From an uncultured Staphylococcaceae bacterium (GTDB taxonomy: Bacteria; Bacillota_I; Bacilli_A; RFN20; CAG-826), in the NCBI GenBank assembly GCA_964392865.1, contig CAYMRJ010000002.1:1574-65573 (forward strand): DNA of 64,000 nt, read 5' to 3'. Positions 17,839-27,696 of the stretch are shown here, in pieces. Position numbers and translations under genes: made by a program. The first letter of the stretch is position 1, and each line of letters begins with the position of its first letter. The notes under the pieces are model-generated. The model saw only the letters and a list, made by a program, of their open reading frames with translations, was not told the DNA's origin and ran no database searches.

Positions 17839-18188
17839 AGCCGATGGATCTTACGTGCATCCTTTGCCCGCGGGGCTGTCGTCTTCATGTCGATGAGCAA
17901 CTCAACGTCACTGGGAATTTTTGTCCGCGCGGCAAAACCTATGCCATTCAGGAAGCCAGTGATCCGAGGCGGACATTGACGAGTGTCGTTAAGGTCGTGG
18001 GCGGCACCGCCTCCATTTGCCCCGTCAAAACGAAGGAGCCTATCCCTAAAGGCCTGATTGGGGCGGCAATGGAACAAATTAAGAACATCGAGGTTCAGGC
18101 ACCGGTTAAATTCAACCAAGTGATCGATGAAAATATCGCGGGCACAGGTATACAGCTCATAACTACTTTAAATATTGAGGCCAAATAA
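17835..18188 (+). CDS. DUF1667 domain protein (third subunit of the oxidoreductase cluster)
   Basis: CILCPRGCRLHV...GNFCPRGKTY Cys motifs. 117 aa. Confidence 0.75.
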   Translation: MKPMDLTCILCPRGCRLHVDEQLNVTGNFCPRGKTYAIQEASDPRRTLTSVVKVVGGTASICPVKTKEPIPKGLIGAAMEQIKNIEVQAPVKFNQVIDENIAGTGIQLITTLNIEAK

Positions 18189-18736
18189 TGGATGAGACCA
18201 ATCTGATCTTAGTCGCAAGCGACATACACGGAAGGGTAAATGCTGCCCGGAAGCTTATAGAAAAGATTAAAGAAGTTAAACCTGATGAAGTATGGCTTCT
18301 CGGCGATTTCATGTACAACGGGCCCCGCAATGGCGTCCCCGACGACTATGAGCCGATGGAAGTCTGCAAGCTTCTCTCAAGCATCGAGCAGCCGATTCGC
18401 GCCGTATGCGGCAATTGCGATTCCAGGGTTGATGCTATGCTTCTTCCATTTGATATCCCCAACAATATTAAAGTTACGGTTTTCGGCAAAGCGTTCGGAC
18501 TCTTCCACGGGGATTTGCCCTTTCCTGATGGTGAGGATCTGGATGCGCTTGTCAGCGGGCATACCCATATTCCTGTCTGCACGTACGAAGACGGCAAATA
18601 TTTCCTCAATCCCGGTTCCGTCGCTTTTCCCAAGGGCGGCTATCCGGCAAGCTATGCCTTGATTTGCGAAAAAGGCATGAAGGTCCTTTCCCTCGTTTCC
18701 AACGAAGAAATACTTTCCTGTCCTTTCGCCATTTGA
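18188..18736 (+). CDS. YfcE/MJ0936-family metallophosphoesterase
   Basis: ASDIHGR, GDFMYNGP, GNCDS, HGD and GHTHIP motifs. Confidence 0.75.
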   Translation: MDETNLILVASDIHGRVNAARKLIEKIKEVKPDEVWLLGDFMYNGPRNGVPDDYEPMEVCKLLSSIEQPIRAVCGNCDSRVDAMLLPFDIPNNIKVTVFGKAFGLFHGDLPFPDGEDLDALVSGHTHIPVCTYEDGKYFLNPGSVAFPKGGYPASYALICEKGMKVLSLVSNEEILSCPFAI

Positions 18737-18859: not shown

Positions 18860-20038
18860 ATGTTTAGGCTTCTTAGGGTCAAGGCCAGCGGGTTCAGAAA
18901 CCTTTCTGACGGAATCGAAATCAACCTTCTTAGCCGTACGCGGATATACGAAACCGATCCCATAAAGCAGATCCTCGAGGTCGACGAGAACCTCCACACC
19001 TTCAAAAGCGTAGCTGTCGTCGGCAACAATTCTTCCGGCAAGACGAGCGTCCTATGGCTTCTCATAACCGCCGTTTGGTTTCTATACAGGGGACGCTTCC
19101 CGGTCGATCTTTCCAATTTCGGAAATGACGAGATGGAACTCGAAACGGACTTTTACTTAAGAGGGAAAATCTATTTCTACAAGGTCAGGTTCAAGAAGCC
19201 GGCTCCGTCGGTCCTAGTCCAAGAAGACGATGTCGAGATCCTCGAGGAAAGCCTTTCTTCCATCAGGTACTCCGGCTATCTCGGGAAAAAGGCCCTTGAT
19301 AGGAAGGCAGCCGCCAAGATCGAGCCCTTGGCCGAGAGCTTCGGGGGAAGCTCTTCCATAAGGAATCTGCTACGGGGAGAGATCAATTTCGCTTTCTTCG
19401 ATACGAATCGGATCGGAGGCCCCATGCAATCCCTTGTTTCCGATTCCTTTTTCCTGACCCTCGAGCAGGCCGATCCGAAGATGAAGAACCTCGTCCTCGG
19501 CCTTCTCGACGATTCGATTGCCACCTTGGAGCTCATCAACGGCGATCTCGTCGAATTCGCAAGGGTCGGAGAAGAGAAGAGGGTCATCACCAGGAGCCAG
19601 CTCATCACCCTTCTTTCGGCCGGGACGATCCGGGGCCTCGAACTCTTCATCAAAATCGATGCCATCCTTCGCTCCGGCGGCATCCTTTTCGTCGATGAAC
19701 TCGAGACTTCCTTCCATAAGGAATTGGTAAGGACGATCCTTTCCTTCTTCAATAGCTACTCGACCAATCCCCTCGGGGCGCAGCTATTTTTCACCACCAA
19801 CATGACGACCTGCCTCAACTTCCTGAGCCGCCGGGACGCCATCTTCATCACCCATCGCAACGGCAAGGTCGTCTCCTGCGTCAATCTCAAGGACGGCTAC
19901 GACGCCCGGAGCGATCTCCGCCTCAGCAACCAGATGGATGCCGGCGACTTCGGCACCAACGTCGACTACGAGAAACTAATGGATGTGAAGGAGGAGATCA
20001 TGGATGCCGTCCGTTTTGCTGATGTGCGAGGGGCGTAG
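18860..20038 (+). CDS. ABC/SMC-type (AAA_15/AAA_21-like) ATPase, copy A1 of tandem triplet
   Basis: Walker A GNNSSGKTS. Signature-like LSAGTIRGLELF. Walker B ILFVDELETSFH. The H-loop position reads TTN (Asn, not His). SD AAAGGAGGG lies upstream. Confidence 0.8.
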   Translation: MFRLLRVKASGFRNLSDGIEINLLSRTRIYETDPIKQILEVDENLHTFKSVAVVGNNSSGKTSVLWLLITAVWFLYRGRFPVDLSNFGNDEMELETDFYLRGKIYFYKVRFKKPAPSVLVQEDDVEILEESLSSIRYSGYLGKKALDRKAAAKIEPLAESFGGSSSIRNLLRGEINFAFFDTNRIGGPMQSLVSDSFFLTLEQADPKMKNLVLGLLDDSIATLELINGDLVEFARVGEEKRVITRSQLITLLSAGTIRGLELFIKIDAILRSGGILFVDELETSFHKELVRTILSFFNSYSTNPLGAQLFFTTNMTTCLNFLSRRDAIFITHRNGKVVSCVNLKDGYDARSDLRLSNQMDAGDFGTNVDYEKLMDVKEEIMDAVRFADVRGA

Positions 20039-20567
20039 CGAAACCCACGTCGTCTCGATTCTTCTTTACCGCAATCTCCTTAGGTGGAAGAACTCCGATC
20101 TCCTATCGCGGGAACCGATGACCGCCAGGCAGTTGGACGAGGCCATCGAGGGCGCGATCCTCGGCGCCAAGCGCGGCGAGGCCGTCGAGGTCTTCCGCAT
20201 CGGCGACAAGCTAAGCGACGCCTTCAGGAAATCCAGGAATCCCGCGGTCAATAGGCGATTGGTCTATCCCGCCGCCAAGGTTTTGACGAAACCGGAACTC
20301 GAAGTCCTTTTCCTCATATGGGAAGACCGCTACTCCGAATACCTAAGCTGGAAGAAGGGAAGGCATCCGAGCGGTCCCAGCGATTACTACAAAACCCTCC
20401 ATCCCGAATATCACAAGGACGCGGTCTATCTCCATGACTACTTCGCCAAGATGGGCAATGGCGAGATAGTCGCGATGCTCAAGGCCTACAAGGAGAAGCG
20501 CTACGGAGCCCATGCCAAGGACGAGCTCTGCCTTTACGACCTCTTAAGGGAAGATCTCAAGAAATGA
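20004..20567 (+). CDS. RloB/Toprim-like small partner protein B1 (187 aa)
   Basis: Overlaps A1 by 35 nt. The N-terminus VLLMCEGRSE and internal KPELEVLFLIWED resemble the CEGxxTE and FELWLL motifs of RloB/AbiLii-type proteins. This is a by-eye assignment. Confidence 0.55.
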   Translation: MPSVLLMCEGRSETHVVSILLYRNLLRWKNSDLLSREPMTARQLDEAIEGAILGAKRGEAVEVFRIGDKLSDAFRKSRNPAVNRRLVYPAAKVLTKPELEVLFLIWEDRYSEYLSWKKGRHPSGPSDYYKTLHPEYHKDAVYLHDYFAKMGNGEIVAMLKAYKEKRYGAHAKDELCLYDLLREDLKK

Positions 20568-20657
20568 TCCATCTGCAATTTCGGCGTTTTACAAAACACC
20601 AAAAAGCGGAATTTTGCGGAGACTTGTTGATTAAGGTGCTTAAATAAGCAGAAAACC

Positions 20658-20667
20658 TGTTTATAAT
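20658..20667 (+). promoter_or_regulatory. Possible extended -10 promoter element for A2
   Basis: TGTTTATAAT lies 28 nt upstream of the A2 start. No convincing -35. Confidence 0.35.
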
Positions 20668-20694
20668 TGCATTACGGAAACAAGGAACCGACGA

Positions 20695-21861
20695 ATGTTC
20701 AAATTGCTGAGAGTCAATGCCAGCGGCCTCCGCCTTTTGGAAGACGGAATCGAGATCAATCTCCTGAACCGTTCCAAGGTCATGGACGAAGATTTCGATC
20801 GCGAGCTGATGGCAATCGAAGAGAATCTCAATACCTTCAAGGTAGTTTCTATAGTAGGCGGCAATTCATCCGGCAAAAGCAGCGTCCTTTATCTTTTGAT
20901 CTGGGCTTATCTGCTTCTCCTCGAAGGAAGGCTATACGCCCTTCCCGGCGATTTCCGCGGGGAAGAAGCCCATATGGAAATCGTTTTCTACCTCGACGGG
21001 ACGGTCTATTTCTACGAGGCGACCTTCCAAAAGCCCCAGGATGACATTTCCTTCAGGCGCTTTCCCAACATCTTGGAAGAAAGCCTCCGGAGCATCCCCT
21101 ATACCAAAAGGAAGGGCCGCCACGTCTTGGAAATGAAGGAATCGGCCAAGGAAGAGAAGCTTCCCAAAAGCATCGTCGGGGGCTCGGCCATCGCCGAAAT
21201 GGACAAGGGGATGCATTTCAGCTTCTTCGCCGAAAACCAGACCGACCTCATCGCGACCGGTTTGATGGTCAACCGCTCCTTCTTCGACCAATTGGCCAAG
21301 GCCGATATGAATGTGGCCATCCGCTTCGCCCGTTTGCTCGATCCATCCATCGCCTCGATCAGGCTATTGCCCGGCGAACTCGTCGAATTCGCAAGGAACG
21401 GGGAAGAGCCGAAGACCATTACCCGGAACCAATTGATCGGCTTGCTTTCATCCGGGACCATCAGGGGGCTCGAGCTTTTCCTACGGGCCTACGAGATGCT
21501 TAAAACCGGCGGCACACTCGTGGTCGACGAGGTCGAAAATTCCCTCCACAAGGACATCGTCGGGAACCTCATCTTCCTTTTCACGGACTTCGAGACCAAT
21601 CCGCGGAAAGCCCAGCTGATCTTCACGACCCATTCGATGGAAACCCTCAACCTCATCAAGCGCCTCGACGCCATCTACGTCGCCCAGAAGGAAGGAAATA
21701 GGATTTCCCTAAGAAACCTCAAAGGCGACCTCAAGGTCCGTTCGGGCCTGCTCATCAGCCATCAGTTCGATGCCGGGATCTTCGGCACGAACCTGAACTA
21801 CGACCTCCTTCTTGAGGTCAGGAAGGGGATCGCCGATGAGCTTGGCTCTGGTGATGTGTGA
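20695..21861 (+). CDS. ABC/SMC-type ATPase, copy A2
   Basis: Collinear with A1 (roughly half the residues identical by eye). Walker A GGNSSGKSS, LSSGTIRGLELF, Walker B LVVDEVENSLH, H-loop TTHS intact. Confidence 0.8.
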   Translation: MFKLLRVNASGLRLLEDGIEINLLNRSKVMDEDFDRELMAIEENLNTFKVVSIVGGNSSGKSSVLYLLIWAYLLLLEGRLYALPGDFRGEEAHMEIVFYLDGTVYFYEATFQKPQDDISFRRFPNILEESLRSIPYTKRKGRHVLEMKESAKEEKLPKSIVGGSAIAEMDKGMHFSFFAENQTDLIATGLMVNRSFFDQLAKADMNVAIRFARLLDPSIASIRLLPGELVEFARNGEEPKTITRNQLIGLLSSGTIRGLELFLRAYEMLKTGGTLVVDEVENSLHKDIVGNLIFLFTDFETNPRKAQLIFTTHSMETLNLIKRLDAIYVAQKEGNRISLRNLKGDLKVRSGLLISHQFDAGIFGTNLNYDLLLEVRKGIADELGSGDV

Positions 21862-21979
21862 AGGCGCTACGAGCAGAACCTTCTTAATGCTGAAGGAATA
21901 TAGGGAAAAGCGCTTCGGCGCCCACGAAAAAGGCGAACTCTGCCTCTACGACCTCTTAAGGGAAGACCTGAAGAAATAA
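21836..21979 (+). pseudogene. In-frame internal-deletion remnant (47 codons) of the RloB/Toprim-like partner (B2)
   Basis: Translation is MSLALVMCEGATSRTFLMLKEYREKRFGAHEKGELCLYDLLREDLKK. It matches B1 residues ~1-13 and ~155-187 and lacks the ~140 central codons. The start overlaps the A2 end by 26 nt, as in A1/B1. Confidence 0.6.
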
Positions 21980-22023
21980 GCGGATAGATTGGCCATTTTC
22001 CTTCGACTAAAACCGGATTTTCG

Positions 22024-22052
22024 TTGACAAAATCTAGGTTTTGTGGCATATT
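22024..22052 (+). promoter_or_regulatory. Sigma-A type promoter for A3
   Basis: TTGACA (22024-22029), 17-nt spacer, TGg-CATATT extended -10 (22044-22052). SD AGGAGG at 22090-22095 sits 7 nt before the TTG start. Confidence 0.55.
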
Positions 22053-22102
22053 AAATATAACTAGGGACGGCTTACGCCCCCGTTCACATAGGAGGTAAGA
22101 AT

Positions 22103-23026
22103 TTGACGAAGATTTTGCGCGTCAAGGCTTTCGGCTTTGCTCCTTTGGCCGACGGCAACGAACTCGATTTCGCATCCAAGGAAAGGAAGCCCGGAAAGGC
22201 CGGGAAGGAGGTGGCGAAGATCACCGAGGGCCTATATTGTCCTAAGGCCCTCGGCCTCAAAGGCCCGAAGGCGGAAAGGGATGGGGCGATCCGCCTTCTG
22301 GTCCTCGTTTCCAGCCTTTTGACGAGCGGCTATTTCCGCGCCAGGCCGAGCGAATTCGTCGGGGAACGCATCACCCTGGAAATCGATTTCTACAAAAGGG
22401 GGAAGATCTTTTTCTTCAAAGGCTCGTTCTTCCGGGATGAATATCTCCTCAAATCCCAGCCGGCCATGCTGAAGGGAGAAGAACTCAAATGCCGGGCTTG
22501 GAACAAACCGGAAGAAAGCCCCAAGACCATCATGTCTTTCCCCTATACCAATCCTTTTTCGGTCATCAACGAATATACTTACGGCTTCCATTACTCCTTC
22601 TTCGCGCCGGAGAAAGCGATAAACAAGGCCACGGGCGGCATGCATTTCGTCCGCGCCCTATTGGATGCTAGTCCAGCTGATCTCATCGAGGCCGCCCGCC
22701 TCACCGACCCTGCCATTTCCGTGCTTTCCGTCCGGGAAGACGACCGCTATGAATTCGCTTACGAGGGCGAGCCGACCAAAGTTTTGAATCCCAAAGGCCT
22801 CATCGCCTTCCTCGGGGAGAAGAAGGCCATCGCCCTTACCCTTTATCTCAAGGCCCTGGAAATCCTCTCGATCGGCGGGATCCTTCTGCTTAGGGGATTG
22901 GACGATCCGCGTCTAAGCAAGGAAGCGGCCGATAAGGTCCTGGAGCTATTCAAGGACGGGCACCATAACCGTCATAAAGCCCAGCTCATCTTCACGGCCG
23001 AGCCGGTTGGCTCCAGTTCCCTTTAG
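22103..23026 (+). CDS. Degenerate, C-terminally truncated paralog A3 of the ATPase (all nucleotide-binding motifs lost)
   Basis: The N-terminus MTKILRVKAFGFAPLADG is collinear with A1/A2. The Walker A position reads GLKGPKAERDG. The signature position reads FLGEKKAIALTLY. Walker B reads ILLLRGLDDPRL. It ends just after KAQLIFTAEP. Confidence 0.6.
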   Translation: MTKILRVKAFGFAPLADGNELDFASKERKPGKAGKEVAKITEGLYCPKALGLKGPKAERDGAIRLLVLVSSLLTSGYFRARPSEFVGERITLEIDFYKRGKIFFFKGSFFRDEYLLKSQPAMLKGEELKCRAWNKPEESPKTIMSFPYTNPFSVINEYTYGFHYSFFAPEKAINKATGGMHFVRALLDASPADLIEAARLTDPAISVLSVREDDRYEFAYEGEPTKVLNPKGLIAFLGEKKAIALTLYLKALEILSIGGILLLRGLDDPRLSKEAADKVLELFKDGHHNRHKAQLIFTAEPVGSSSL

Positions 23027-23058: not shown

Positions 23059-23126
23059 AATGGCCCCCTAAAGGGCGGCGCTTCCATTTATAATGTGTAA
23101 GCCAACCGGCCCCTTAGGGGGCCATT
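23059..23126. repeat. 13-bp perfect inverted repeat bracketing the rnj upstream TATAAT
   Basis: AATGGCCCCCTAA (23059-23071) and TTAGGGGGCCATT (23114-23126). TATAAT at 23089-23094 lies in the 42-nt spacer. A local hairpin GGCCCC-TTAG-GGGGCC lies at 23107-23122. Confidence 0.6.
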
Positions 23127-23140
23127 CATCAATAAGCCAT

Positions 23141-24814
23141 ATGAACGACAAGATCAGGATAATCGCCTTGGGCGGCCTCGACGAAGACGGAAAGAACTGC
23201 CTCCTCGTCGACGTCTCGGGCGAGCTTTACGTCGTCGGGTGCGGCCTGCGCTACCCCGATAGGACGATGCCGGGGATCGATTACGTCATCCCCAATTTCG
23301 ATTACCTCAAGGAAAGGAAGAAGGACGTCAAAGCCTACTTCCTCCTGCAGGGCCACGAAGACGATATGGCGGCCATCGCCTATGTCTACAAAGACGTCCC
23401 GGCTCCGGTCTACGCCAGCGAGACGACCATCGCCATGCTCAAGGTCTTCACGGCCCAAAGTTCCCTTGACCCGGACATGTACGACTTCCATCCGGTTCTC
23501 CCGACCTCGAGCTTCAAGGTGGGGGAGAGGAAGATCCGCTTTTTCCATACTTCCCATAACATCGCCGATTCCTCCGGCATCGCCATTTCGACGAGCCTCG
23601 GGAACATCGTCGTCACCGGCGACTTCGTCGTCGAAAACAACGCCAAGCCCGGCTTCCTCCACGATGCCGTCGCCATCGCGAAATTGGCGGAAGAAGATAC
23701 CTTGGTCCTATTGGCCGAAAGCAAGTATGCGGCCAAGGCCGGCTATACGGCCCCGAAGTACAAGCTCGCTCCGCTTGTGGAGCGCGATATCAAAGACGCC
23801 CCGGGCCGCGTCTTCGTTTCCGTCTTCAGTAGCAACGCCTACAACATCGCCGAAGTCATCGACATGGCCGTGGCGAGCCGCAAGAAAGTCGTCTGCTACG
23901 ACAAGGAAAGCGAAGAGATCCTCAGGACCCTCCAAGGGAGCGGACACCTTCAGATACCGAAGGCCAACTACGCTCCCGTCGACGACATCAGGCGCCTAAG
24001 GGAAAACGAAGAAATCATTCTCATTCTCGGTAGAGGCAGCAAGCTCTATAGCAAGATCGCCCTTTTGGCCGGGGGCCAAAGCGAGGATAAGCGCATCGTC
24101 TTGGGCCCTGAAGATACCTTCATCGTCGCCGCTCCCAGCAACGACAATACCGAACTCGAATTCACCGACGCCGTCGATGAGCTCTATAGGACGGGCGCCA
24201 AGATCAAGAACCTCAGCAAAAAGACGCTTCTCCGCATGCACGCTTCGGAAGAAGACCTGAAGATGATGATCGGGATTCTGAAACCGAAGTACTACATCCC
24301 GGTCAAAGGCTTCTTCAAGGATCTGCTCACCAATGCCCAGGTCGCCCTTTCGATGGGCATCAGCCTGAGCCACCAGAATGTCTTCCTTCTCGAAAATGGG
24401 ATCTCCGTCCTTATTGACGAAAAAGGCGGACGCCTCGTCGACGAAGGCATCAAGCACGGCGACATCATGATCGACGGGATCGGGGTCGGAGATGTCGGCT
24501 CCAATGTCCTTAGCGACCGCGAAAAGCTTAGCGAAGGCGTCGTCATACTCGGCCTCACGATCTCGAAAGGGAAGAGGGCCATCGTCGCCGGGCCGGACGT
24601 CCAGATGCGGGGCTTCGTCTTCGCCAGGGACGCCGACAGCGTTACCAGGGAAGTAAGCCGGCTTTTCCTTACGACCGTCGAGGAAAATTTGGCCCAAGAG
24701 AATTACCGTTTGGACGAACTCAAGCAAACGGTCTATGAGCGCTGCGCCCGCACCATCAGGCGGACGACCGGCAGGGAACCGATGGTCCTGCCGCTGATCA
24801 TCGAGGTGGCCTGA
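23141..24814 (+). CDS. rnj: Ribonuclease J homolog with substituted catalytic motifs (probable inactive J2-like paralog)
   Basis: RNase J collinearity (IRIIALGGLDEDGKN, FFHTSHNIADS, VTGDF). However, motif II reads QGHEDD (canonical HGHEDH), beta-CASP motif B reads HASEE (HxSGH), and motif C reads PVKG (PxHG). The start was taken at MNDKIRII. Confidence 0.85.
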   Translation: MNDKIRIIALGGLDEDGKNCLLVDVSGELYVVGCGLRYPDRTMPGIDYVIPNFDYLKERKKDVKAYFLLQGHEDDMAAIAYVYKDVPAPVYASETTIAMLKVFTAQSSLDPDMYDFHPVLPTSSFKVGERKIRFFHTSHNIADSSGIAISTSLGNIVVTGDFVVENNAKPGFLHDAVAIAKLAEEDTLVLLAESKYAAKAGYTAPKYKLAPLVERDIKDAPGRVFVSVFSSNAYNIAEVIDMAVASRKKVVCYDKESEEILRTLQGSGHLQIPKANYAPVDDIRRLRENEEIILILGRGSKLYSKIALLAGGQSEDKRIVLGPEDTFIVAAPSNDNTELEFTDAVDELYRTGAKIKNLSKKTLLRMHASEEDLKMMIGILKPKYYIPVKGFFKDLLTNAQVALSMGISLSHQNVFLLENGISVLIDEKGGRLVDEGIKHGDIMIDGIGVGDVGSNVLSDREKLSEGVVILGLTISKGKRAIVAGPDVQMRGFVFARDADSVTREVSRLFLTTVEENLAQENYRLDELKQTVYERCARTIRRTTGREPMVLPLIIEVA

Positions 24815-27696
24815 TGGGCAAAAAACGCGAATACACGAAGCTGGATATCAAGCACGCCCTCGGGGCGGTTTTGGCCTTATTCAGCCTCGTCGTTTTGCTT
24901 TCTCCCACCAGCAATTTCCTCTATGGCCTCGGGATCGGTGTCTTCTATCTCTTCGGCTTTACCGGATATTGGCTTTTGATCCCGGCTTTATTCATCGTCG
25001 GGGTCTGCTATTTCCTCATGGGTTCCCTCCCGGGCGGGAAGAATTCCGGAAGGGTCGTTTTGGCCTACGTCCTTTGCTATATCGGGATTTCCCTGATCGT
25101 TGGCCGTTATTGCCTTGCCGAAGCCCCGAGCCTAGGGGGCCTTGCCCTTTATAACGGGGGAGACGAAACCTTCGGGATGGGCTATGTAAGCGCCAATAGC
25201 CTTTACGCCTCCATGCCCTTGATGCCCGAATTCGGGGGCGGGATCCTCATCTATCTTTTGCTCGTCCTTTTGGAAAACGGGACTTCCGTGATGGCCGGGC
25301 TCCTCGGCGGGCTCTTGATTCTCGGCGGCATCGTGGCCGCCCTTTGGGCTCCCATCACCAAGGGCATTGCCTCGATGCGGAGCAAAGGGGCTATCAAGAA
25401 GGCGAGGCGCCAGGAAGAAAAGGCCCGGCGCGATGCCTATGACGACGCAGTGAGGGAGCAGCGCGAATACCAGGAACTGATGAAGAAGTACCTCGGGGAA
25501 GATAGCCCGACGCCTTCTTTCGCGACTCCCGTCTACGAAGAACCGGCGCCCGCTCCGATCGCTGCTCCGGTTTCGACTCTTTCGCGGGTCGCCGAAAATA
25601 GAAACCGCATCGATAACCCCGCAATTCCCCGGGAAACGAGAAGGGAAGAGCCGCAGAAGATCCTCAATCTTTCGGCCGCGGAACTCCGCAATACTTCCCT
25701 CACTGAAGCGAAATTGAAACTAGGGAATACCCAAAGCGAGACTGCTTCCCTTTACATCGAACCGGCTCCGCAGCCGGCGCCGAAACCGGCTTACGTATCG
25801 CCCGTCATCGAACCGGCCGCTTTGAAACCGGAACCGGTTCCTCAGCCCGCGCCCCAACCCGCCCCGCAGCCAATCCCTGAACCGATCATCGCGCAGCCTG
25901 CGCCTCAGCCCATTCCTGAACCGGAGCCTGTGCCAGAAAAGCCCGAGGATTTCTATTTCGGCGGTGAAGACGAAGTTCCGGAAACGATTGAAGAGCCCGT
26001 GACCCCGCGTGTGGCCGAAGGCACCTTCCTCATGCCCGAACCGGAACCGATCCCCGAACCCGTTCCGGAACCGATTATCCAGACTGCTCCGGCTCCGCAG
26101 CCTGCTCCTCAGCCCATGGCCCAGCCGATTCCGCAACCCGCTATTCAGCCCGCTCCCCAACCTGACCCCATGCCGCAGCCGGCCCCGGTCCAGAAGCCCT
26201 TGGAACCCTATGTGAAGCCCACGAGCAATCTTCTCAAGGAATACGGGGTTTCCCAGAATGCGGCGAGGAACGAAGAAGAAGCCAAGGTCCGCTGCGAAAC
26301 CATCAACAAGACCTTCGAGGACCTCGGCATCCCGGCCCAGGCCATCGGCTATACCATCGGGCCTTCCGTTACCCGCTTCGACATCCAGACGGCCGCCAAT
26401 TACCGCGTCTCCGGCCTTAGCAACGTCATCCAGGACATCTGCGTCCGTCTCGATGGCGTCACGGCCCGCTTCGAGCAGGTCGTCCGTGGGAAGTCGACTT
26501 CGGGTCTCGAGGTCCCTAACTCCGTGACCGCCACCGTTCCCTTCAAGGAAATGTTCGAGGCCTTGCCTTCCAATGAGGACGGGAAGAAGAACCTCTACAT
26601 CCCCTTCGGGAAATCGATCACCGGCGAATGCATGTCGAGCGATCTAAGCGAATTCCCGCATATGCTCGTGGCCGGCACGACCGGCTCCGGCAAATCCATT
26701 TTCGTTCACGGGGTCCTCATGAGCCTCATCATGAGGAACGACCCGGACGATCTGAAACTCGTTTTGGTCGACCCCAAGCGTGTCGAAATGACGAAGTACA
26801 AGAACCTTCCGCATTTGCTATGCCCCATCGTCAAGGAGCCGAGCGAAGCCAAGGTCTGCCTGGATAAGCTGGCCATCGAGATGGAAAGGCGCTACCGTCT
26901 CTTCGAAGAAGCCGGCGTGAGCAACATCCGCCAGTATAACGGCGACTACGTCCCTTACGAACCCGGCACGAAGAAGCTCCCCTTCATCGTCGTGGTCGTC
27001 GATGAATTCGCCGATCTCAAACTGACCTGCAAGGATATCGACGAAGTCATCATCAGGCTTACCAGCAAAGCCCGTGCCGCCGGGATCCACCTCATCATCG
27101 CCACCCAGCGCCCGAGCGCCGATATCGTGACCGGCCCCATCAAGGCCAACCTGGGCGTCAAGGTCGCCCTCATGGTTTCCAATAGCCTCAACTCCCGCGT
27201 CATCCTTGACCAAGACGGGGCCGAAACTCTCCTTGGCAAAGGCGATATGCTGGTCGATTGCCCGATGATGGTCAGAGGCGGCCTGGCTCGTCTCCAGGGC
27301 TGCTTCGTGGACAACCACGAGATCGCCGAGGTCTGCGACTACATCCGCTCCCAGAGGGAACCGGATTACAATCCGGACTTCCTCGATCTGGTCGATCACG
27401 AAGCCGAGGCCAAGGAAGCCGAAAGGGAAGCGGCCAAGGTCGATACCAAGGCTTTGAAGGCCGCAAGCGACGAAGAGCTCTACCAAGAGGTCAAGCGGAA
27501 CGTCATGGGCCGCGATTACGCCTCGGTTTCCTATATCCAGACGATGTTCGCCGTCGGGCATCCGAAGGCGAGCCGCCTGTTCGCCCGCCTCCAAGACGAA
27601 GGCGTCGTGAGCAGGGAAGGCTCTTCGAGCACCAACAACAAGGGCTGCCGCGTCCTTCTTCACATGCAGGATATGACCGGCATGCACGAGGAATAA
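24814..27696 (+). CDS. ftsK: DNA translocase FtsK/SpoIIIE
   Basis: N-terminal TM segments. Long Pro-rich linker. Motor domain with GTTGSGKS and VVVDEFADL. C-terminal gamma wHTH. Confidence 0.95.
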   Translation: MGKKREYTKLDIKHALGAVLALFSLVVLLSPTSNFLYGLGIGVFYLFGFTGYWLLIPALFIVGVCYFLMGSLPGGKNSGRVVLAYVLCYIGISLIVGRYCLAEAPSLGGLALYNGGDETFGMGYVSANSLYASMPLMPEFGGGILIYLLLVLLENGTSVMAGLLGGLLILGGIVAALWAPITKGIASMRSKGAIKKARRQEEKARRDAYDDAVREQREYQELMKKYLGEDSPTPSFATPVYEEPAPAPIAAPVSTLSRVAENRNRIDNPAIPRETRREEPQKILNLSAAELRNTSLTEAKLKLGNTQSETASLYIEPAPQPAPKPAYVSPVIEPAALKPEPVPQPAPQPAPQPIPEPIIAQPAPQPIPEPEPVPEKPEDFYFGGEDEVPETIEEPVTPRVAEGTFLMPEPEPIPEPVPEPIIQTAPAPQPAPQPMAQPIPQPAIQPAPQPDPMPQPAPVQKPLEPYVKPTSNLLKEYGVSQNAARNEEEAKVRCETINKTFEDLGIPAQAIGYTIGPSVTRFDIQTAANYRVSGLSNVIQDICVRLDGVTARFEQVVRGKSTSGLEVPNSVTATVPFKEMFEALPSNEDGKKNLYIPFGKSITGECMSSDLSEFPHMLVAGTTGSGKSIFVHGVLMSLIMRNDPDDLKLVLVDPKRVEMTKYKNLPHLLCPIVKEPSEAKVCLDKLAIEMERRYRLFEEAGVSNIRQYNGDYVPYEPGTKKLPFIVVVVDEFADLKLTCKDIDEVIIRLTSKARAAGIHLIIATQRPSADIVTGPIKANLGVKVALMVSNSLNSRVILDQDGAETLLGKGDMLVDCPMMVRGGLARLQGCFVDNHEIAEVCDYIRSQREPDYNPDFLDLVDHEAEAKEAEREAAKVDTKALKAASDEELYQEVKRNVMGRDYASVSYIQTMFAVGHPKASRLFARLQDEGVVSREGSSSTNNKGCRVLLHMQDMTGMHEE
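25763..26195 (+). repeat. Low-complexity coding repeat (PQPAPQPAP / PEPIPEPVPEP) in the FtsK linker
   Basis: Reiterated CCGCAGCC / GAACCGGAACC units. The same peptide style recurs at 54775-55190. Confidence 0.7.

Follow-up and report, generated by a model that had tools for sequence, protein, structure and literature searches.

A tandem array of AbiLi-type ATPase genes with a small, probably RloB/Toprim-like partner: a candidate phage-defence module in an uncultured Staphylococcaceae bacterium

Systems that combine an ABC ATPase with a Toprim component (OLD, Gabija, PARIS, AbiL, MADS) form a major class of bacterial immunity. Here we describe a two-gene module, A-B, in a 64,000-nucleotide (nt) stretch of DNA from an uncultured Staphylococcaceae bacterium (GenBank assembly GCA_964392865.1, contig CAYMRJ010000002.1, positions 1,574 to 65,573; hereafter the window). 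The window carries three tandem ATPase paralogs (A1, A2 and A3), one intact partner gene (B1) and the remnant of a second (B2). The reading we favour, and hold to be somewhat probable, is that A-B is a candidate phage-defence pair in which an AbiLi-kind ATPase works with a shortened, divergent RloB/Toprim-type nuclease, and that in this lineage B2 was lost while the A paralogs diverged.

The three ATPase genes lie on the plus strand and encode proteins of 392 amino acids (aa) (A1, 18860-20038, an AbiLi-like ABC/Rad50-type ATPase), 388 aa (A2, 20695-21861) and 307 aa (A3, 22103-23026, with a TTG start). A2 is 47% identical to A1 and the diverged A3 is 30% identical to A1, all three aligning collinearly over their length, and the paralog-versus-paralog tblastn E values of 1e-18 to 1e-99 show that the likeness is not due to chance. 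The list of open reading frames (ORFs), the alignment and tblastn thus bear out the original prediction in its coordinates for A1, B1, A2 and A3, in the collinear paralogy and in a 35-nt overlap between A1 and B1. The alignment likewise reproduces the shared N-terminus (MFRLLRVKASG in A1, MFKLLRVNASG in A2, MTKILRVKAFG in A3) and the Walker A, signature and Walker B motifs that had been quoted for A1 and A2. Judged by sequence, A1 and A2 are AbiLi-type ABC ATPases, as had been proposed from their architecture: they match the PADLOC AbiLi model PDLC02335 at E=1.5e-38 and E=3.4e-38, respectively, and Pfam AAA_21 with 39.8 and 71.9 bits (cutoff 27). Both also give weaker matches to AriA, PtuA, MAD3, HEC-01A and PDC-M38A, which belong to the same radiation of ABC/Rad50-like defence ATPases. 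No PDB chain matches the A2 sequence.

The two proteins differ at a single catalytic element. A2 has Walker A, the signature (LSxG), Walker B with its catalytic Glu and the H-loop His, while in A1 the first three are intact and the H-loop His is replaced by Asn. Of the 84 A-family sequences compared, 82 have His in this column; A1 and A3 (Glu) do not. The Asn of A1 is also found in a 96%-identical strain represented by contig L005, and A1 is the only ATPase-competent member without the His. Substitutions in the H-loop of ABC ATPases usually keep ATP binding but cripple hydrolysis, and A1 is predicted to bind ATP yet hydrolyse it poorly. An AGGAGG sequence lies 7 nt upstream of the A1 ATG.

The partner gene B1 (20004-20567, plus strand, 187 aa) shares 35 nt (20004-20038) with the end of A1. 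Both genes of the pair could be located at 90 loci, drawn from genomes, one plasmid and viral contigs, and at every one of them (90/90) B directly follows an A homolog on the same strand. The genes overlap by 4 nt in 60 of these loci and by 1 nt in 6, and independent gene calls likewise give AAA_21 followed by B. Only the window's lineage has more than one A gene per locus; elsewhere each locus holds one A-B pair. A word-indexed search found 13 relatives of B1, an exhaustive profile search returned 836 B-family clusters (50% identity) at E<=1e-3, 483 of them at E<=1e-10, and a scan of GTDB species representatives placed B homologs in at least 175 genomes. The hosts are mainly gut and rumen Bacillota, with single contigs, mostly metagenome bins, labelled Treponema, Bacteroidales, Bifidobacteriaceae, Hallerella and Alphaproteobacteria.

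The distribution of the pair is patchy and its surroundings vary. No family is represented more than 4 times among the 149 genes that directly adjoin the pair at about 40 loci; relaxase, resolvase, ArdC, helix-turn-helix, AAA_14/DUF4143, ThsA, methyltransferase and PDC candidates occur together with ordinary metabolic genes. This variety, with no neighbour recurring more than 4 times, marks A-B as a self-contained, horizontally mobile two-gene cassette. It is found in a type IV secretion system (T4SS)/primase-like region, in a cluster with a type II restriction-modification (RM) system (AlwI-type) and PLD/DpnI_C, on a Ligilactobacillus salivarius megaplasmid adjoining ArdC, toprim and topoisomerase genes, and on 8 IMG/VR viral contigs recovered in a scan with a 14-sequence alignment. 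A conserved, self-contained mobile unit of this kind is what one would look for in a defence or toxin-antitoxin module. Viewed qualitatively, some homologs have RM, ThsA or PDC neighbours or lie on a plasmid, beside T4SS genes or on viral contigs; the locus in the window stands among core genes.

Two loci deserve separate mention. In the closest outgroup, 38% identical to A1 (L003, 11374-16273; L004, 7419-12318), A-B lies about 2 kb from a PLD/DpnI_C gene, the gene of an AlwI-type restriction enzyme and those of two D12-class methyltransferases; these surroundings are a defence-island-like context. On the L. salivarius plasmid pBNS11-360kb (L086, 7986-8528), the B-family protein WP_095759350.1 is named 'N-6 DNA methylase' in RefSeq and has no Pfam match at E<=1e-3. 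This name is probably wrong and perhaps goes back to the historical association of rlo genes with type I RM systems.

The nature of B was approached through conservation, predicted structure and profile comparison. Among 65 diverse family members E9, G10, D68, E98 and E100 are invariant, and E13, R42, R65 and P97 nearly so. In an AlphaFold2 (AF2) model of B1, with a predicted local distance difference test (pLDDT) score of 88.6, a strand at 3-8 is followed by CEG, a strand at 61-67 by the invariant Asp and a strand at 86-94 by P-E-L-E; the C-terminal half is helical. The reference for RloB was an annotated RloB from a Clostridium estertheticum plasmid, from which 103 PF13707 homologs were collected and 29 diverse ones aligned for hhalign. 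Against this 29-sequence profile the B profile scores 26.8 (P=0.0027, probability 11%), and at a relaxed threshold the match is collinear over about 165 columns. Three motif blocks are paired: 'ilimCEG..E' of B with 'lIVCEGk.TE' of RloB (E9 at CEG, E13 with E34), 'RIgD' with 'CVfDvD' (D68 with the invariant RloB D98), and 'TkPEiEIL.II' with 'SNPCFELWYLLHF' (P97 with Pro, E100 with the invariant E144 of SNPcFE). An AF2 model of the genuine RloB (pLDDT 86) has strand 1 followed by CEG, strand 3 by DxD and strand 4 by SNPCFE, so that the order of secondary-structure elements and the placement of the motifs agree between the two models.

Shuffling controls set this score in context. None of 150 column shuffles of the RloB alignment reaches 26.8 (mean 11.9, standard deviation (sd) 2.1, maximum 21.1), which puts the real score about 7 sd above that null, and the reversed alignment scores 9.7. 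When the alignment is shuffled in 8-column blocks (mean 17.5, sd 2.0, maximum 29.6), 3 of 150 reach the real score. Pfam scans of the 65 B proteins one by one gave sub-threshold matches only, the most recurrent being OLD-like_TOPRIM (PF20469) in 6 of 65; RloB was matched by 1 of 65 (E=0.001), DUF4276 by a single member, and the PADLOC AbiLii model PDLC02337 by 2 of 65 (E about 0.02). The Glu expected after the first Toprim strand is present as E9, invariant in the 65 sequences and directly after strand 3-8 of the model. The DxD motif is absent: D68 is the sole invariant Asp and position 70 is non-acidic (consensus RIxDxxxxxF). After the following strand come the invariant E98 and E100, which may stand in for the missing DxD. 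In our reading B is probably an RloB/Toprim-like protein that has been shortened and has diverged, its DxD being reduced, and it lies outside PF13707 and AbiLii as these families are now modelled. The resemblance to RloB motifs claimed in the original prediction stands insofar as the CEG..E and KPELE..L segments are the very columns that hhalign pairs, and does not extend to any match with a hidden Markov model (HMM).

Several results weigh against the defence reading and, in particular, against a Toprim assignment for B. B1 has no match in Pfam, PADLOC, NCBIfam, PHROGs or the PDB sequences, and the 14-sequence B profile likewise matches no PDB sequence. More specifically, B1 has no HMM match to RloB, where the PF13707 gathering threshold is not reached, nor to DUF4276, DUF4435, AbiLii or AriB, contrary to what the original prediction led one to expect; for the PADLOC AbiLii model this holds even at E<=10, and for DUF4435 (PF14491)/AriB it holds for all 65 B members. 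Nearly all of the B family fails the curated RloB, AbiLii, DUF4276, DUF4435 and OLD-Toprim models, and a narrow RloB HMM run against 160 B-family proteins gave nothing significant. The hhalign probability is just 11%, and the 3 of 150 block shuffles that reach the real score mean that part of the signal comes from a single short motif. The canonical DxD is reduced to one invariant Asp. A Foldseek search of the B1 model, also put forward with the original prediction, found no significant match in PDB or BFVD: the best PDB match, the Toprim domain of RNase M5 (6z2b_B), has E=0.48 and TM 0.22-0.31, and neither of two related BFVD matches, a DnaG Toprim protein (rank 6) and a putative DNA primase (rank 13), is significant. 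This negative has little weight, since the genuine RloB model is equally empty, with no Toprim among its top 45 matches. Finally, the array in the window is surrounded by core genes, without mobile or defence neighbours.

Much of this would be explained if B were no Toprim nuclease but a small alpha/beta protein of other descent, be it an adaptor, an antitoxin or a different enzyme. The module would then work unlike AbiL or PARIS, for instance with the ATPase as its toxic or effector component. The missing curated and structural matches, the low hhalign probability and the lack of a DxD motif are what one would then see. We regard this as unlikely, yet as a serious contender, because the three conserved blocks can be aligned collinearly with RloB and each sits at the C-terminal end of the matching strand, the score stands far above the column-shuffle null, the sub-threshold matches concentrate on Toprim-clan families, the invariant acidic residues suggest a metal site, and the ATPase partner of B belongs to a type that teams up with Toprim effectors (PMC11464382). 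Far less probable is a core SMC/RecF-like function in DNA maintenance, the pair serving chromosome or RNA metabolism beside pnp, rnj and ftsK. The pair in the window and a related pair between tsf and pyrH (locus L089) do lie within conserved housekeeping neighbourhoods without mobile-element genes. However, the distribution over several phyla is patchy, the pair is also met on viral contigs, on a plasmid and next to T4SS conjugation genes, its neighbours are not conserved (at most 4 of 149), and even the two closest relatives have it inserted at different sites. On distribution and context we reject a housekeeping role.

The remainder of the array records the fate of the other copies. After A2, which has no functional partner gene of its own, the plus strand holds the B2 remnant (21836-21979, 47 aa), in which the B N-terminus (MSLALVMCEG) is joined to the last ~32 residues, 83% identical to the C-terminus of B1. 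About 14 N-terminal and 32 C-terminal codons are left and about 139 internal codons are deleted. In agreement, tblastn gives 83% identity over 30 aa, and the 91 nt at 21887-21977 repeat those at 20475-20565 with 81% identity. The 96%-identical strain differs in the remnant by a 1-nt indel that shifts the frame, and this difference between strains identifies B2 as a pseudogene, a dead remnant. The original prediction had the partner of A2 deleted; the remnant shows that the deletion was not a clean one. As a separate observation, the Logan contig of that strain stops inside the remnant (L005 4158-4181, aligned with window 21862-21884) with one extra G, a few bases before the junction of the internal deletion (about 21884/21887); the extra G may mean that the strains in the sample differ at this position.

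None of the ATPase motifs survives in A3, in line with the original prediction: the Walker A position reads GPKAE-RDG, the Walker B position reads LLLRGLDD, and the signature and H-loop are gone too. A3 is also short of ~70 residues at the C-terminus. Its match to the AbiLi model is weak (E=4.9e-5, 20 bits). The frame is nevertheless free of internal stops, against 4 to 21 stops in its five other frames, and its codon-usage log-odds per codon are 0.50 in frame (A1 0.46, A2 0.54) and -0.89 out of frame. The GC content at its third codon positions is 0.70, and a consensus AGGAGG Shine-Dalgarno sequence lies 7 nt upstream of the TTG. A3 is an intact, coding-like ORF with host-like codon usage and without ATPase motifs. 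Its 90%-identity cluster has one member, two metagenome scans found neither A3 orthologs nor further tandem arrays, and the sole other contig with A3 is 100% identical.

In a neighbour-joining tree A1, A2 and a fourth copy, A4, form one clade, and A3 is a long branch nearest to it (27-28% identity to the clade versus 19-22% to other members). A4 belongs to a further A-B pair on a Logan contig from SRR7039261 (L089, 4808-6500), located between tsf and PAP2-pyrH-frr and showing the same 35-nt overlap; A4 is 51% identical to A1 and its B is 50% identical to B1. The contig comes from the same metagenome sample as the 96%-identical strain, and it may belong to the same genome or to a sister species.

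Comparison with that strain, L005, gives ratios of nonsynonymous to synonymous substitution (dN/dS) of 0.02 for A1, 0.08 for B1 and 0.04 for A2, at a synonymous divergence (dS) of about 0.14 for each; the flanking DUF1667 and Metallophos genes give 0.06 and 0.13. A1, B1 and A2 are under strong purifying selection, and A2 is being maintained in spite of the loss of its own partner. The description of A1/B1 as intact accordingly holds for selection and for the main motifs, the exception being the H-loop Asn of A1. The picture of graded decay is supported by the B2 pseudogene and contradicted by the constraint on A2 and probably also by the intact, host-like frame of A3. We envisage that the module would have been duplicated in tandem at least twice in the window's lineage, that an internal deletion would have destroyed B2 and that, with the partner of the third copy absent, B1 would be the sole effector gene left, while A1 (H-loop Asn), A2 (canonical) and A3 (ATPase-dead, truncated) persist as diverged paralogs.

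What these paralogs do can be read in more than one way. The simplest account, a working A1/B1 pair accompanied by two decaying, functionless duplicates, fits the internally deleted B2 with its strain-dependent frame, the loss of the C-terminus and of all four ATPase motifs from A3 and the absence of a third B. We consider it improbable, as a dN/dS of 0.04 over 1167 nt at dS 0.14 is incompatible with A2 being a pseudogene, and A3 has stayed stop-free at ~70% amino-acid divergence with an in-frame codon bias equal to that of A1 and A2. Alternatively, the paralogs could divide the labour as a multi-sensor or hetero-oligomeric scaffold sharing the single effector B1, in which the canonical A2 and A1, the latter predicted to be hydrolysis-impaired, form an asymmetric ABC dimer and A3, being ATPase-dead, serves as adaptor or decoy. 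Such a dimer has parallels among heterodimeric ABC proteins in which one ATP site is degenerate. This tentative idea would account for purifying selection on A2 as strong as that on A1 despite its dead partner, for an H-loop His replaced in A1 of both strains and kept in all other ATPase-competent members, for the 307-codon A3 frame that remains open at ~28% identity with host-like codons and a strong Shine-Dalgarno sequence, and for the restriction of the array to one lineage. It is held back by several points: A1-A2 and A2-B1 interactions are hypothetical, the signature is canonical in both A1 and A2, which leaves only one element of a degenerate site, the only second contig with A3 is identical, so that selection on A3 is not measurable, and A2 could act alone. 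A more elaborate form, in which the paralogs are interdependent, A1 and A2 would control B1 as an asymmetric hetero-oligomer, A3 would bind the trigger or regulate, and B would represent a new minimal Toprim branch, is rather doubtful. Neither erosion nor specialisation is likely on its own terms; the pattern of the array suggests division of labour among the paralogs over plain erosion.

Comparison with known systems places the candidate defence pair close to several of them without merging it with any. Like AbiL of Lactococcus lactis and RloA/RloB of Campylobacter, A-B is bicistronic and translationally coupled, the gene of an ABC/Rad50-type ATPase coming first and that of a small effector second. 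PADLOC AbiLi is matched by A1 and A2 at E about 1e-38, and B appears to have the three motif blocks of RloB in the same order and on the same predicted secondary-structure elements. However, RloB and AbiLii proteins are ~210-300 aa long, as opposed to ~180 aa for B, which fails both PF13707 and the PADLOC AbiLii model and has a single invariant Asp for DxD and 'TKPELE' for 'SNPCFELW'. In terms of the PADLOC definition of AbiL, the locus contains AbiLi (A1 and A2) and no AbiLii partner. PARIS also joins an AAA_15/21 ABC ATPase sensor to a separate Toprim-class effector, is often carried on mobile elements and prophages, and offers a plausible mechanistic template in which the ATPase scaffold sequesters the nuclease until a trigger frees it (PMC11464382). 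In contrast to PARIS, AriA models recognise A (~390 aa) just as a generic AAA_21 protein (PDLC02980, which at 304 positions has the length of Pfam AAA_21), B has no DUF4435/AriB match, and no PARIS structure is among the Foldseek matches. PARIS membership is rejected for want of any DUF4435/AriB signal, and B1 does not qualify formally for AbiL or PARIS, the candidate class of the original prediction, as it matches neither AbiLii nor AriB. The NetFlax pairs of an AAA antitoxin with a Toprim_OLD or RloB toxin are similar in having two genes, with the ATPase neutralising a Toprim-type toxin (PMC10440598), and agree with the loss here of the effector gene (B2) and not of the ATPase gene; the likeness is architectural, and no sequence link between B and the NetFlax toxins emerged. 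Members of the OLD family (P2 Old, GajA, the retron Eco8 effector) combine the same ATPase class with a Toprim-type domain, the family reached below threshold by 6 of 65 B proteins (PF20469), yet they fuse the two and keep a canonical DxD, unlike the separate genes and reduced motif of A-B. A-B would fall into the ABC-ATPase plus Toprim defence class as a variant, and the window's lineage is the only one that shows its expansion in tandem.

By analogy with PARIS, AbiL, RloAB and the NetFlax pairs, we infer a sensor and effector logic, a nuclease activity of B and an anti-phage phenotype. Most likely B, translationally coupled to A, would be a shortened, divergent metal-dependent nuclease of RloB/Toprim type. 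An oligomer of A would hold B inactive and sense infection; a trigger from the phage, acting together with the binding or hydrolysis of ATP, would free or activate B; and B would then cut nucleic acid (tRNA/RNA or DNA), leading to abortive infection. Each part of this scheme has a precedent. In PARIS the Toprim nuclease AriB is kept bound by the AriA scaffold and set free by a trigger, and AbiL is grouped with the ATPase plus TOPRIM systems (PMC11464382), its own mechanism being still unknown (PMC13064643). RloB has been assigned to the Toprim superfamily (PMC12065111), and toxicity-neutralisation assays established that the AAA ATPases of NetFlax pairs neutralise Toprim_OLD/RloB toxins as antitoxins (PMC10440598). 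The loss of B2 with retention of A2 fits a toxin/antitoxin logic, in which loss of the toxin is harmless.

The array is bordered upstream by a Metallophos_2 phosphoesterase gene (18188-18736), preceded by pnp, two FAD oxidoreductase genes and a DUF1667 gene, and downstream by an RNase J gene (rnj, 23093-24814) and ftsK; domain scans thus corroborate the phosphoesterase and rnj flanks originally named. The reported absence of integrase and transposase holds for the flanking proteins scanned, none of which has such a domain, the flanks not having been searched systematically for one. No tRNA gene was found within the window, and no flanking direct repeats or att-like sites surround the block, where the sole repeats are the paralogous coding segments. 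Each copy had been credited with its own promoter-like sequence. A scan with a sigma-70-like consensus lends this little support, as a single site passes, before A3 (22024-22052, plus strand; TTGACA, 17 nt, TG-CATATT), which is no more than the 2.4 expected from shuffled sequence.

Between the A3 stop and rnj, an 18-nt inverted repeat (23059-23126; 94% complementary, 32-nt loop), with arms AATGGCCCCCTAAAGGGC and GCCCCTTAGGGGGCCATT, flanks a TATAAT-like hexamer and extends into the opening codons of the longest rnj ORF. The repeat could act as terminator of the array or as leader element of rnj, whose true start may be an ATG near 23141 (MNDKIRIIALGG). The RNase J homolog itself matches the RNase_J_C and beta-CASP domains, gives no Lactamase_B match at E<=1e-3 and reads 'QGHEDD' at the position of the HxHxDH motif; these features suggest that it may be a catalytically degenerate, RNase J2-like paralog. 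In ftsK (24814-27696) the linker at 25650-26200 is rich in proline and of low complexity over a long tract in which PQPAPQPAP and EPIPEP units recur; the tract stands out in the sequence, but FtsK linkers are ordinarily like this.

The locus points to a sizeable sister family of ABC-ATPase plus Toprim systems that is common in gut and rumen Bacillota. Because B is unmatched in the copies of Pfam, PADLOC, NCBIfam and PHROGs that were searched, tools relying on those models would miss it, and a B profile would let defence-annotation tools detect the A-B module. At ~180 aa, B is an attractive minimal model for the restraint of a Toprim-like effector by an ABC ATPase. The array, for its part, provides a natural experiment in paralog specialisation, with one effector accompanied by canonical, H-loop-mutant and ATPase-dead ATPases. 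If the paralogs are indeed interdependent, several sensors derived by duplication from a single defence ATPase would here serve one effector.

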